From Candidatus Zixiibacteriota bacterium (GTDB lineage: Bacteria; Zixibacteria; MSB-5A5; UBA10806; 4484-95): a DNA stretch of 26,702 nucleotides. The stretch lies in assembly GCA_029932605.1 (NCBI GenBank), contig JAOZPT010000033.1, positions 1-26,702 on the forward strand. Direction: 5' to 3'. Positions 6,001-12,000 of this stretch are shown here, piece after piece (within the stretch, counting starts at the first letter, position 1; each line of letters begins with the position of its first letter). Position numbers: made by a program.

Positions 6001-9000
6001 TGAGTATGTACCTGGTGATGTAAACGGGGATGGTAGTGTTATGAGAAATGATGTAACTTACAGTGTTCGATATTTCAAAGGAATCGGCTCGGTTCCTCCT
6101 GACAGTTGTCAGCTACCTGATGGTAACTGGATATATGCAGCTGGTGATGCCAACGGTAACTGTATGTTTAATGGCAATGACATCACCTTCCTTGTCTATT
6201 ACTTCAAGGGTGTCCATTCTGACATCCTTTTCTGTCCTCAGACACCACCAGCAAATCCGCTAATTTTAAGAAATAATGCAGGTAAAACACCTATGAATAT
6301 TCGAAAAAAATAATGTATTTCAATCCATTGTGCTATAAACTTATATAAACAACCAGCAGACTAAGAAATAATAATTACAGTATCTTATAAATTGTAACAG
6401 TTTGTTCAACACTACATTTTTTATTGCTCCATTTCAATGTTTAATATAAATACTCAAATATGAATTTAAATCAACTGCTGAAAAAGTCCAAAAGGAGTTA
6501 ACGAGATGTATGACATGATAAAGAAGTTAAGTGAGAAATATGCCACAAGTATGGTCAACCTTCGCCGGCACCTGCACCAGATACCCGAGACTGCTTTGAT
6601 GGAATTCGAGACCAAGAAGTCAATGGTTTCTCAGTTGAAAAAGTTAGGGCTTAAGGTTAGCACAAATTTCTGGAGGACATCATTGGTGGCGCTTTTGGAG
6701 GGCAAAAGCAAACTGCCCTGTGTTGCCGTAAGAACGGATATGGATGCTCTTCCGGTGCAAGAGAAAACAGGCTATTTCTTCACCTCGAAAAACCCTGGCT
6801 GTATGCATGCCTGTGGTCATGATGCCCATATGGCGTCGGTTTGGGGTGCGGCGAAGATACTCAGCGAGTTAAAGGAAAATCTTGGAGGCTCTGTGAAATT
6901 CATTTACCAGCCATCCGAGGAGGAGCCTCCAGGTGGAGCCATCCCCATGATTGCTGCTGGTGTTTTGAAAAACCCAAAGGTCTCTGCCATATTTGGCCTT
7001 CATGTTGACACCACGATACCATCTGGCAAAATCGGTCTGAAGGATGGTCCGCTTATGGCACGTGTGGGTGATTTCAACCTGACTGTTTATGGAAAGTCGG
7101 GCCATGGCGCTCGCCCCCAGGAGACGGTTGATTCGGTAGTGGTGGCATCGCATCTCGTGACCGCTTTTCAGGAGATAGCATCACGCCAGGTCAATCCTCT
7201 TGACCCGGTAGTGGTCACAATCGGTAAAATCGAGGGAGGGACAGCACGTAATATTATTGCCGGGCATGTCACTTTGTATGGGACTGTGCGCATGCTTGAC
7301 GATAGACTTGCGAAGAAGATGCCTGGAATGATAAAGAAAATCGCCAATGGTGTTTGCAATACATTCGGGGCAAAATATGAGCTTGATTACCAAACTGGGT
7401 ATCCGGTTTTAATGAATAGTCCTGAGATTAACAGCATTCTGGCCAGTGTAACAAAACGTATGTATGGCAGGAGTGCTGTTGAAACGATAAAAAGGCCGGG
7501 AATGGGTGCGGAAGATTTCGCCTGTTACCTCGAGAAGGTCCCCGGGGCTATGTTTATGCTGGGTGTGAAAAACAAGAAAATTGGCGCAGATAAACCCTGG
7601 CACCATCCGCAGTTTAAGCTCGATGAGAAAGCTATCCCCATGGGAGCGGCTATACTTGCAGGAGCTGTGTGGGAGTATTTTGAAAAAAAGATGAAATAAC
7701 AGGATTTATAAAATCTTTACTTCGATTCAATAGCTGATACTTTTATCTATAAAATTAAAAGCTGCTGGGATTAATTTCCAACGGCGTGAGATAATGTTTT
7801 CAGAGTTGTCTTTTTACCTGAGGACCTCTTTACCTTTTCCTGAGACTATGTCACGGATAACTTTCTGGACATTTTCAGGGTTACCGGCACCGATATTTAT
7901 TGTGAAACAGTCACTCTTTTCAAGTAGCTTTTTATAACCACGTTTTTGCTGTTCGATTCTTTCAGATGTTTTTACCAGTAAGTAGGGATTATAGAATGGA
8001 TGACTTAACTCCGAGACCGCATCGGCAGGAGGCTGCCCATTTTCCAGAATGCGTAAGGCTTGTTCAGCTGATAATTTCTCGGCTATTGTTCCAAAGTTAT
8101 CTTTTTTGAATATTAAAACCGTTTTCACCTTGGTGCGCTTGCAATGTTTCTGTGGCCCGCCTATCCAGTAGGGGTCAAGCATAGCCCAGGAGTTTTTAGA
8201 GGCAATAAAGCAGAATGGTTCCCCTTTATCGAGCTCGCAATCATCCCGATATAAACATGGGCTGTTTTCACACCGGTCTTTGGAGGTTATTACATTTTCA
8301 CATTTACTTCTCTCGAAAAGCGGTTTGGCACCGGGGAATTTCTCAACAAAATCAGTGCGCATGTGAAATTTGCGTTCGACACAGTCCGCCGTGATGGCCG
8401 GCCCGATTGAGCGGACAAAAACTATATCAGAACTTACGATTTTACTATTTGGATGTTTTAAAAGGCCGGCGATATGGGTTGATTTACCTGTTGTCGGCGG
8501 GAAAAACATCAATACGCCCTGGTTGTCAATGTCGAAGCAAGTGGCGTGGACAGCCAAAACGTTGTAAAGTTTCTCGGAGATATCGGAGACAATTCCTAAG
8601 GCTATGCTGCGAAGCTGGGCGTAGTAGGCTGATTTGAAGAAAAAGCCGGTATGAGATTCGGGATTGTAATAGGCTCTCGGTTCACGTCCGGGTATCCAGT
8701 TGATGGCGTATATTATGCCATGTGGTTCGATATCGGCCTCGAGTTCGGTAGGATAAAAATTCTCGATCCAGAAATCATTCAGGTGAGGGCTGTTGGTGCG
8801 AAGCTGTAAGACTACCCCACCTATGTTGACGTTCCATTCGTAGTAAGTATCATGTGTTAAAAAAGCCTCGGATTCGGCCACTAGAGCATCCCGCATCTCA
8901 AGGTTTATCGATGGTTCCATCTCCACGAAATCCCGACGTTTGGTAACGGTATTATTGAGCGCTTTTCTTCGGGCTTTTCGTGAGGGCGTCAGCTCGGCTA

Positions 9001-12000
9001 ATGCCTCTGCAATACGACTGATTCCCTCATCGATGCGTTCCATGGAGGTTGAATATGAGACACGGGCGAATCCCTCCATGCCGAAAGCATCACCGGGAAC
9101 TATTGCTACATGGGCTCTTTTCAATAAGTAATAAGCCAGGCCGTAAGAGTTGCGGATGAGATTACCGTTATATTCCTTATCGAAATATGCCTGAAAATTT
9201 GGGAACAGATAAAACGTTCCCCGTGGCTGAGAGCAGGAAATACCCGGGATAGCCCGGAACCGAGAGAGAGCGAAGTTTCTCCGCCTTTGAAACTCATAAA
9301 CCATCTTCTCAACTTCAACCTGGGAGCCTGTTAAAGCCTCAACTGCGGCCAATTGTGAGATAGAGCAGGCATTGGAGGTGTTATGGCCCTGGATTTTATT
9401 CATGCCCGATATAAGCTCTCTGGGACCAGCGGCATAGCCGAGGCGCCAACCAGTCATCGAGAAAGCCTTGGAAAAACCATTGATGACAACCGTGAGCTCT
9501 TTGGCTTTGTCTGATATCGAGGCTACGGAAACAAATTTAAAACCATCGAAAACGAGCTTCTCGTAAATCTCATCCGCAATGATAACGATATTTTCCGATA
9601 CGGCGATATCGACGATCTCCTCGAGTTCTTCTTTTGTGTATGCGGCGCCGGTAGGATTGCATGGGTTGTTTAAGAACAAGGCTTTGGTTTGAGGGGTTAT
9701 GGCCTCGGAAAAGTCATTTGGTTGCAGGCGAAAGCCGTTTTCCTCCCGACAGCGCACAAAGACAGGAACCCCCTTGGCGAGGTTGACCATCTGAGGATAG
9801 GATACCCAGTAAGGCGCTGGAATTATCGCCTCTTCGCCTTTATTGAGAAGAGCAACACAGAGATTGTATAGGCAATTTTTAGCTCCTGGAGATACTATGA
9901 TCTCGTTATTCTTATAATCAATACCGTTTTCATCATGAAGCTTTTTGATGATGACTTGTTTTAACTCGGGGATGCCGTCGTTAGCGGTGTAATGAGTGAA
10001 ATTATCATCGATCGCTTTCTTGCCTGCATTCTTGATATTTTCAGGGGTGGGGAAATCTGGTTCACCTATTGAAAGGTCGATGACATCTATACCCTCGGCC
10101 TTAAGCTGTTTAGCTTTTGCTGATATCCTTAAAGTGGCTGATTCGCCTATACGCTGAATTCTATCTGCAAGAAGTCCCATGGTGCTTATTCGGTCTTATT
10201 TTTGGATGTTTGTTTTTTAGGTAGAGCTTTTAAAAACTCTTTAATATCTATACCGGATAAGGCCTCGACTACCGACGGCAATTGTGCTAGCACCTGGGCA
10301 ACCTGGCCCGTTATTTTTGAGGCACCGTCAGCGCTGTCTCCTACCATGATGATCTTATCAACCTTCGATAGCGGTTCAGATACCGCTTTGGCTAGCTCCG
10401 GCAAGACATCGATATACATCTGATATATAGCGGCCTGATTATATTTTGACCATGATTCGGCTTTCTTAGCCATCGCTTCAGCTTCAGCCATCCCCTCCTG
10501 CTTTATAGCCTCAGCCTTGCCTTTAGCCCGGGCTTCAAGCTTGAAAGTCTCAGCTTCGGTTTCTGCCTGGGCCTGATATTTCATTGCATCAGCGGCCTTT
10601 TTTATGGTTGACTCCAGCTCCATTTCCTTGCGCAAGACTTCCTTTTCCTCAACTTTGATGGCTTCCTCTTTCTCTATCAAGCGAACCTTGTATTCCTCTT
10701 TTTTAATCTGCTGGTTCATCTTCAGACGCTCAAGGTCGTAGGAACTGTCGGAGACCGCTCGTTTTTGATTTATGTCCGCCTGGAAACCTGCGCGTTGTAT
10801 TTCGTAATCGCGGCTGGCTTTGGCGATTTCGGATTCAGCCTGGAACTTAGCAACATCACCCTCCTTGCGAGCTTGAGCAGCCTTAATCGTTGCTTCCATA
10901 TCAGCTTCAGCCTGAGCAATCTCGGCTTCACCTTTAACTCTGGCTATATGTGGTTTACCTAAAGCCTCGATATAACCCTGAGAATCGCTTATCTCCTTTA
11001 AGGCAAATGAAAGAATGGTTAATCCCATGGATTCAAAGGCCTTCATCGAGGAGGCGGCAACCTTCTCAGCGAAATCATCGCGTTTCTGGTAAATCTCTTC
11101 AACCGTTAATGAACCAAGAACACCCCTCATGTCTCCTTCAAGTATTTGTCGGGTGATCTCTTTCATACCTTCGAGGCCCTTGCCCAGAAACTGCTCAACG
11201 GCCAGCCGTATTGAATAATCATCCCCTTTGACCTTAACCTGGGCCTGGCCGACAGCTTTCAATTCGATCCCTTTAGCAGTTAAACCATCGGGTATTTCTA
11301 TGTTAATTGTAAAAACCTCCAACGGGAAAACCTCGGCTTTCTCTAAAAAGGGGATGACAAATGTACCACCGCCAATGTGCATGCGGTAACCTATCTTGCG
11401 TTTTGTGCCATCAGGATCGACAACTGTCCGTCGTCTGCCGCCTGAGATTATCAATACTTCATTGGGGCCAACCTTGCGGTACTGTTTGGATAAGGCGACG
11501 AGAAAAAGAATAACCAATATTAATATAACGCCAGCTATAATCGTCCATCCAACGAATGTCATATCTAAGCTCCCTTCCTTATTTAAATTGAGCTGACTTT
11601 CATATGAGTTGTTTTGATAAAATCAACCCCATCCGGCCAGCCTGTATTTTAAGGTAAGATGAAGTTATACAAATATCAGAATCTACGCAACATTTTTCCA
11701 TATGTCTTAATAAAATAAATTCAATTTCCAATTACTATATATTTGGTGTGTATATAATAACCATCTTCACTTGATAAAACACTTTCGAAGTCAAGATATC
11801 GCTTCTTTGTTGTCCTGCCTCTGGCGGAAATAGGCTTTTCCTCGATTTAAGTTGGTGATAATTATACTTATTATTGTTTCAGCCCTGGACTGGTGATTCC
11901 TGATATATCAAATATTGAAGATCTATTATTTGTGAGCAGATTATTCATTCCCGGTGAAAGTCGTGATATCGTAGTAAGTTGTGTTTACGCTTATATTTTT

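Follow-up and report, generated by a model that had tools for sequence, protein, structure and literature searches.

The protein described here resembles known enzymes in both of its halves. Its N-terminal half corresponds to the type Ib aspartate aminotransferases (AspATs; PDB 6f77, 1j32, 1bkg and the plant Asp/prephenate aminotransferase 5wmh); AspATs are dimers. The C-terminal half compares with the ATP-phosphoenolpyruvate carboxykinases (ATP-PEPCK; PckA, EC 4.1.1.49, PF01293; PDB 1ii2, 1aq2, 1j3b) and, over a smaller core, with the C-terminal domain of HPr kinase/phosphorylase (HprK; PF07475; PDB 1jb1, 1ko7). A His and Asp-Asp motif is common to HprK and the PEPCK fold. The PEPCK fold can also occur in a structural role: NDUEG2, a eukaryotic mitochondrial accessory subunit of Euglena complex I with a truncated C-domain, is judged in PMC10884005 to be an unlikely functional enzyme with a structural use in a larger assembly. 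Our search of the openly accessible literature found no published description of the AspAT fusion or of its C-terminal domain family.

The fusion gene lies in the window, a 26,702-nucleotide stretch of contig from a Candidatus Zixiibacteriota bacterium. The survey's finding was a 788-aa AspAT joined to an unnamed PEPCK-like domain, and this is confirmed: one open frame carries PF00155 in its N-terminal half and a PEPCK fold in its C-terminal half (Table 1). A homolog search returned 755 homologs among 4214 candidates of 433-1379 aa, with PF00155 in 119 of 120 among the matches listed, in line with the earlier view that homologs are almost uniformly of fusion length and carry this domain. A frameshift or assembly artefact as the origin of the fusion was ruled out by the same length recurring in hundreds of homologs. 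The family was also described as widespread and conserved; homologs are indeed numerous, but their distribution is patchy, with the fusion in 50 of the 201 genomes of the phylum. Across 133 homologs, median identity to this protein was 52% for the C-domain and 65% for the aminotransferase half, and the former value implies that the C-domain is still under conservation. A model of the full-length monomer had a mean pLDDT of 90.1 and a pTM of 0.55, with no fixed orientation between the two domains; since AspATs work as dimers, this pTM says nothing about how the domains pack. Promoter and terminator scanning gave sites no more numerous than expected by chance.

Table 1. Features of the fusion locus, with positions in the window
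Feature	Position	Strand	Basis or remark
Fusion gene (788 aa) of a class I aspartate aminotransferase and a pseudo-PEPCK domain	7814..10180	-	Single open frame
Aminotransferase domain, residues 1-397	8990..10180	-	PF00155; invariant PLP/substrate positions
K238, position of the PLP Schiff-base lysine	9467..9469	-	133/133 full-length fusions; role as in type Ib AspAT
PEPCK-fold domain, residues 401-788, catalytically eroded	7817..8980	-	Fold model, profile alignment, residue mapping
F418 at the PEPCK R65 column	8927..8929	-	Motif alignment, outside the hhalign range; least secure assignment
Residues 519-525: Y207 kept, K212 to R524, Mn ligand K213 to S525	8606..8626	-	Register from profile and hhalign
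H545, equivalent to PEPCK H232, kept in this copy	8546..8548	-	Arg in 165/215 AspAT-fused domains
Distorted P-loop, residues 559-568: K566 kept, first glycine to T563	8477..8506	-	Residue alignment
S584-D585: D268 lost, D269 kept	8426..8431	-	Residue alignment
Four-Cys insert: C637, C642, C648, C657	8210..8272	-	Each Cys in 128-131/133 AspAT fusions
W665 at PEPCK R333	8186..8188	-	Arg in closest homologs
Flotillin/SPFH gene, 5 bases upstream of the fusion	10186..11562	-	Conserved neighbour

The N-terminal half is predicted from its sequence to be an intact type Ib AspAT. PF00155 matched residues 32-390 (E 1.7e-80), and the closest solved structures for residues 1-398 were AspATs (8wkj, E 4e-109; 6f77, E 2e-107), with homology to the type Ib enzymes over the full length. 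The class I PLP fold is present with its PLP lysine, Asp, Tyr and Arg: G39, Y64, K101, W125, D203, Y206, K238 and R246 each occur in 133/133 full-length fusions, and R373 is invariant in the fusion alignment A7. The roles of these residues, including K238, are assigned after type Ib AspAT. S14 and T16 (125/133, the other eight being gaps), together with K101, correspond to the residues that recognise the dicarboxylate in the Thermus enzyme. The difference from type Ib AspATs is the additional 388-aa C-terminal domain; the fusion scored 438 bits against NF004769, below its cut-off of 617.

The C-domain was modelled with high confidence (388 aa; pLDDT 95.3, pTM 0.93). Foldseek returned only PEPCKs among the matches listed (lowest E 9e-18, identity 11-17%, TMq 0.64-0.74), and VIA-align placed 350 of the 388 residues on 1ii2 (Z 27.8, rmsd 3.1), bearing out the proposed PEPCK fold in the two-domain form of PF01293/COG1866. 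The survey had obtained no match to the domain in a sequence search of the PDB. This holds for a single-sequence search, which gave no match (best E 0.24), but a PDB search with a profile of 48 stand-alone relatives reached ATP-PEPCK (E 8e-8), and hhalign aligned the domain to the genome's canonical PEPCK (probability 97.6, E 3.5e-12). The motifs are collinear with those of ATP-PEPCK by profile, although the C-domain is ~150 aa shorter, has its catalytic and Mn residues replaced, contains a four-Cys insert and is fused to an AspAT. No PF01293 or NCBIfam PEPCK match was obtained for the fusion at the family cut-offs. Identity as an HPr kinase was ruled out: the PF07475 match in the C-terminal half was weak (E 0.089; 12.8 bits, below the cut-off of 33.3), only ~140/388 residues align (Z 11-12), and the domain, unlike HprK, includes the N-terminal lobe of PEPCK. 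A separate HprK-sized match lies elsewhere in the genome, in a 332-aa frame on contig C87. PDB chain 8j9h_E2, which we take to be NDUEG2, aligned at Z 21.4, with no sign of common origin beyond the fold. Related ESM Atlas clusters were unnamed or HprK-tagged only, and two homologs carry the precomputed label PF27840.

Despite this fold, the C-domain is probably not itself a carboxykinase, because the PEPCK catalytic residues are replaced both in this copy and family-wide. We mapped the set R65, K212, K213, H232, K254, D269, K288 and R333, as it is used in PMC13147460. In this copy R65, K212, K213, D268 and R333 are lost: the Mn-ligand positions K213/H232/D269 read S525, H545 and D585, and the substrate positions R65/K212/R333 read F418, R524 and W665. 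Loss of R333 appears recent, since the closest homologs have Arg there. At the K254 and K288 positions K566 and R608 are present, with a distorted loop and a K288 column that is variable across the family. None of the 190 ungapped AspAT-fused domains (of 215) keeps all ten scored sites, the maximum being eight, whereas 119/127 ungapped stand-alone relatives keep all ten. Fused orthologs show free variation at the metal ligands H232, K213 and D268 and likewise at K288 and R333; P-loop Lys or Arg (199/215), D269 (188/215) and E282 (198/215) are largely kept. The four-Cys insert is a likely Zn or Fe-S site; its pattern was found in 0/87 domains fused to PEPCK and in 3/50 stand-alones.

Those 87 proteins, of ~890 aa, carry the same remodelled domain fused directly to PEPCK. 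They are mostly archaeal, with Asgard, Bathyarchaeia, Altiarchaeota and Hydrothermarchaeales names. Their PEPCK half has intact motifs in 86-87/87, and their extra domain shows K212R (85/87) and H232R (86/87) as in the AspAT-fused domains. In quick-method trees of 49 and 29 selected rows, the AspAT-fused domains formed one clade and the PEPCK-fused domains another, and the two were not joined; a single origin of both could be neither rejected nor established (AU p 0.118).

The survey correctly credited the genome with a canonical PEPCK, which occurs in 153/201 genomes of the phylum, including most fusion genomes, but overlooked a second, as it did the PEPCK-fused proteins and the intact stand-alone relatives. 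This separate, intact, non-canonical ATP-PEPCK of ~620 aa (PEPCK2; here at G000:C63:9106-10965) has invariant catalytic positions in alignment A6 (117 rows). PEPCK2 was present in 46 of the 50 fusion-bearing genomes versus 0 of the 151 others, counts that are inflated by kinship and operon co-transfer and apply to this phylum. Fourteen of 19 fetched genome loci of the fusion contained PEPCK2, directly downstream on the same strand in 13, and ndk was called between the two genes in 11 of these. Among 80 metagenome loci PEPCK2 was found in 27 (19 downstream, 8 upstream of flotillin); of the 53 loci whose downstream flank reached 2.5 kb or more, 21 had it adjacent. Flotillin neighbours the fusion in 18/19 genome loci and 62/80 metagenome loci, many of them short; the flotillin gene is probably co-transcribed with the fusion, and the recurrent operon order is flotillin-fusion-ndk-PEPCK2. 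In G000, G028, G079, G089 and G114 the fusion and PEPCK2 co-occur though unlinked. The four fusion genomes without PEPCK2 (G084, G105, G159 and G187) are 89-96% complete and belong to one family; neither an ATP- nor a GTP-PEPCK was detected in G105 and G187.

We consider it probable, though far from assured, that the C-domain serves as a pseudo-PEPCK partner module, linking AspAT with PEPCK2 around oxaloacetate. The fold, the loss of catalytic residues, the gene linkage, the co-occurrence and the other architecture, with PEPCK as fusion partner, are observed; that the proteins bind each other, that oxaloacetate is channelled, that the domain binds a ligand and that flotillin takes part is inferred. 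The N-terminal half would reversibly convert Asp and 2-oxoglutarate to oxaloacetate and Glu. The C-terminal half would derive from a family of compact PEPCK-like enzymes of ~357 aa; with its Mn/substrate site remodelled to a basic pocket (K212R, usually H232R, K213S, D268 variable), it would act as a non-catalytic subunit that docks on or regulates PEPCK2. Docking would tie AspAT to PEPCK2 and allow labile oxaloacetate to be passed on to PEP, or the reverse; recycling of the nucleotide would fall to NDK, and membrane anchoring of the assembly perhaps to flotillin. The earlier proposal that aspartate is channelled via oxaloacetate to PEP thus survives as a link at this node, but not as catalysis by the C-domain, given its replaced residues and the separate PEPCK2; any channelling would target PEPCK2, because the intact enzyme travels with the fusion. 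Complex prediction for the C-domain and PEPCK2 gave scores of 0.00, 0.41 and 0.00 against a mark of 0.32 and weighs on neither side of the binding question. We counted against the partner reading the four PEPCK2-less fusion genomes, the many metagenome loci without adjacent PEPCK2 and the Bathyarchaeia ATP-PEPCKs without the domain. Genomics cannot separate binding from co-regulation of the fusion and PEPCK2.

A less likely but live alternative, which takes in the nucleotide control of the transaminase suggested by the survey, is that the C-domain is a cis-acting sensor of a metabolite or nucleotide (PEP, oxaloacetate, malate, ATP/ADP, or redox via the four-Cys site), which would allosterically tune whichever enzyme carries it (AspAT in this protein, PEPCK in the archaeal ones) and would not bind PEPCK2. 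The basic replacements K212R and H232R conserved in both fusion types, the retained P-loop Lys/Arg, D269 and E282, the restriction of the four-Cys insert to AspAT fusions and the PEPCK2-less fusion genomes would all fit a sensor. However, the P-loop positions drift, with K254 replaced by Ile or Val in 25/87 PEPCK-fused copies, and a sensor alone leaves unexplained why PEPCK2 never occurs without the fusion in 201 genomes, unlinked cases included. It is improbable that the domain has been remodelled into an enzyme of another chemistry that acts on AspAT products, for instance by decarboxylating oxaloacetate or as a kinase, either of small molecules or, like HprK, of proteins. K254, D269 and E282 are largely retained, 20 fused domains keep eight of the ten sites and the fold core is common with HprK, but the free variation of H232, K213, D268, K288 and R333 is unlike a constrained active site, and the His and Asp-Asp motif is not conserved in fused domains. 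The survey's catalytic option, that the domain is an active PEP carboxykinase fed oxaloacetate directly by the fused AspAT, is barely credible despite the full fold and descent from a family with nearly all catalytic residues kept, as this copy has Arg at K212 and K288, lacks R65, K213 and R333, and keeps only H232, K254 and D269 of the set used in PMC13147460.

The intact stand-alone relatives are ~357 aa long. In Bathyarchaeia a canonical PEPCK occurs in 1/25 stand-alone carriers versus 94/126 non-carriers, and in Thermoplasmatota, with 8 genomes only, in 0/3 carriers versus 3/5 others. As they largely exclude canonical PEPCKs, the stand-alones suggest a minimal PEPCK class. Their gene neighbours (GMP synthase, IMPDH, DNA ligase, TauE, M20 peptidase) are lineage-specific and uninformative. 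Eight Bathyarchaeia genomes with no domain match have related ATP-PEPCKs, which therefore need not depend on the domain. We tentatively propose, as a possibility on the doubtful side, that an unrecognised minimal (~357 aa) PEPCK family with Ser for the Mn ligand K213 replaces ATP-/GTP-PEPCK in many archaea and bacteria. Its inactivated copies would be partner subunits of non-canonical ATP-PEPCK, fused to it in Asgard/Bathyarchaeia and here part of a flotillin-anchored AspAT-PEPCK-NDK metabolon.

The domain is a candidate pseudo-enzyme module of an undescribed kind, placed where aspartate, oxaloacetate and PEP meet, and bacteria and archaea carry it in two different fusion architectures. For the contested idea of oxaloacetate channelling, the fusion offers a test case that is genetically encoded, and the intact stand-alone relatives may represent a missing class of PEPCK, closing an apparent gap in gluconeogenesis or anaplerosis in many MAGs.

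The survey's finding had described an aspartate aminotransferase (AspAT) fused to a domain that family libraries do not name and that folds like phosphoenolpyruvate carboxykinase (PEPCK), and our analysis bore out this description. Residues 32–390 of the protein match the class I aminotransferase family PF00155 (E 1.7e-80), and the nearest solved structures are aspartate aminotransferases. The PLP and substrate positions showed no variation in 133/133 full-length fusions, and R373 of this half was likewise invariant. For residues 401–788, family library searches gave no match above cut-off and the PDB no match by sequence. 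Every Foldseek match listed for the domain model (pLDDT 95.3, pTM 0.93) was a PEPCK, and VIA-align against 1ii2 gave a Z of 27.8 and an rmsd of 3.1 over 350 aligned residues. Searches found 755 homologs of the fusion, with PF00155 in 119 of the 120 matches listed. Those closest to it that bear a name come from Zixibacteria, the probable phylum of the source genome. Neither the fusion nor the domain family turned up in the open-access literature searched, and we take the fusion for a genuine, as yet undescribed variation on known components.

Features of the window and their coordinates
Feature	Position (nt)	Strand	Remarks
Fusion protein	7814-10180	-	Single 788-aa product
HisC-like aminotransferase	19687-20892		PLP-lysine motif present; basic C-terminal extension; under TIGR01141 cut-off
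Large, probably secreted protein	4418-6313		Dockerin-like repeats at end
Large, probably secreted protein	21119-24352		Dockerin-like repeats at end
Large, probably secreted protein	24568-26490		Dockerin-like repeats at end

One of the three probably secreted proteins is an M14 carboxypeptidase, and the Dockerin/NIDO matches are weak. Elsewhere, the fusion gene is split or frameshifted at three loci (L210, L230, L239), and genome G187 carries one intact and one broken copy (the latter at G187:C22:14758-15877).

Sequence searches also retrieved stand-alone homologs of the domain (~357 aa) from Deltaproteobacteria, Bathyarchaeia, Thermoplasmatota, Nitrososphaerales and Dehalococcoidia. Their profile recovered ATP-PEPCK by sequence (E 8e-8; hhalign probability 97.6), which fixed the residue register of the domain. 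The domain occurs in three architectures: stand-alone, behind AspAT, and in front of a complete ATP-PEPCK. The last comprises 87 proteins of ~890 aa, named from Asgard, Bathyarchaeia, Altiarchaeota and Hydrothermarchaeales; archaeal "PEPCKs" of this length (P0146, P0380-P0466) carry the N-terminal pseudo-PEPCK domain unannotated. A single origin of the two fused forms was neither rejected nor proven (AU p 0.118). A 751-aa Halobacteria protein (L048:4033-6288), with an intact C-terminal family domain behind ~390 residues lacking a Pfam match, is a possible fourth architecture.

Ten sites were scored, namely the defining E. coli PEPCK set of PMC13147460 (R65, K212, K213, H232, K254, D269, K288, R333) plus Y207 and D268. 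Of 394 domains, 49 were fragments or unassigned rows and were set aside; the rest comprised 215 fused to AAT, 129 stand-alones and one fused to PEPCK. Among the 129 stand-alones, retention was 111 for R65 (a column outside the profile alignments, assigned by motif similarity), 127 for K212, 129 for K254, and 128 each for H232, D268, D269 and R333; all ten sites were kept by 119/127 ungapped stand-alones, while the best fused domains keep 8/10. Patterns spanning K212 and the P-loop had been used to retrieve 79 of these rows, and the 50 pattern-free rows gave the same picture. In the AAT-fused domains, the K212 column holds Arg in 200/215 and the H232 column Arg in 165/215 and His in 26/215, while D268 is kept in 41/215 and R333 in 104/215. 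The fusion in the window has F418, Y519, R524, S525, H545, K566, S584, D585, R608 and W665 at the scored sites. PEPCK-fused domains are remodelled alike (K212R 85/87, H232R 86/87), with the PEPCK half intact in 86-87/87. The fused domain is nonetheless still under conservation, with a median identity of 52% vs 65% for the AAT half. A four-Cys insert marks the AAT fusions (each Cys in 128-131/133) and is found in 0/87 PEPCK-fused copies. By these residues, the catalytic site of the fused domain is eroded. Some set-aside rows (P0204, P0219, P0255) are apparently free-standing and fully degenerate, with the Cys-rich insert retained.

The intact ~357-aa relatives (L033-L112, e.g. L033:7001-8071; P0340, P0129) may be a minimal PEPCK. 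In 50 carrier genomes of unstated completeness, from 50 of the 80 loci tested, canonical ATP-PEPCK was present in 1/50 and GTP-PEPCK in 0/50, these counts covering the ATP and GTP types. Among 151 Bathyarchaeia genomes, canonical PEPCK occurs in 1/25 carriers of the full-length form vs 94/126 others. Against this reading, K213 is replaced by Ser in 125/129 stand-alones and the carrier genomes are related to one another. A ~320-aa archaeal subfamily (P0176, P0169, P0200; 315-343 aa), which lacks the R65 segment, co-occurs freely with canonical PEPCK (17/28 genomes), so its function probably differs from that of the full-length form. A long stand-alone form (550-575 aa, large inserts; L132:6192-7916, P0160, P0171, P0181) is found in three phylum genomes from which both canonical PEPCKs are missing (G004, G026, G080). 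Another long stand-alone homolog, P0186, carries an intein at the P-loop (PF14890, E 1.5e-16), a typical conserved-site insertion.

The source genome has two PEPCKs, the canonical one (C53) already noted by the survey and a second, non-canonical ATP-PEPCK, PEPCK2, closest to NF006821 yet under its cut-off. The catalytic motifs of PEPCK2 are intact, and these positions do not vary across the alignment of its homologs. PEPCK2 (G000:C63:9106-10965 = L002:1216-3078) has 620 aa and a Lys/Pro-rich tail. In the phylum sample the fused-type domain is present in 50/201 genomes, several copies being cut by contig ends and that of G130 lying in two pieces. PEPCK2 occurs in 46/201, every one a fusion carrier, and in 0/151 genomes without the fusion, all counted among kin rather than independent genomes; canonical PEPCK occurs in 153/201. 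At 19 fused loci, chosen among strong matches and not independent, flotillin lies upstream in 18 and PEPCK2 is present at 14. At 13 of the latter PEPCK2 follows downstream in the same orientation, and an ndk call separates the two genes in 11; citrate synthase is near the fusion in five of the 19. Flotillin was found at 62 and PEPCK2 at 27 of 80 metagenome loci. Both genes are present but unlinked in G000, G028, G079, G089 and G114. Upstream of flotillin, 1.3 kb of the window (11563-12842) holds no ORF of at least 90 aa; close relatives G062, G124 and G174 have a divergent PEPCK2 there.

Because the domain is alternatively fused to PEPCK, and because of the one-way dependence in the phylum, we lean towards regarding it as a pseudo-PEPCK partner of PEPCK2. 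Against this stand the four fusion genomes without PEPCK2, two of them without any PEPCK found, the many fused loci without an adjacent PEPCK2, and related PEPCKs in 8 Bathyarchaeia genomes that lack the domain. That the domain is instead a cis-acting sensor seems rather unlikely, and a remodelled enzyme is more doubtful still. An active carboxykinase, as the survey's finding had entertained, is highly improbable. PMC10884005 describes a PEPCK-fold protein in non-catalytic use, the Euglena complex I subunit NDUEG2, a precedent for what we propose here. Physical binding, channelling and ligand identity are what we infer for the fused domain. As a pseudo-PEPCK partner, it would bind or regulate PEPCK2, and AspAT would thereby be coupled to PEPCK2.
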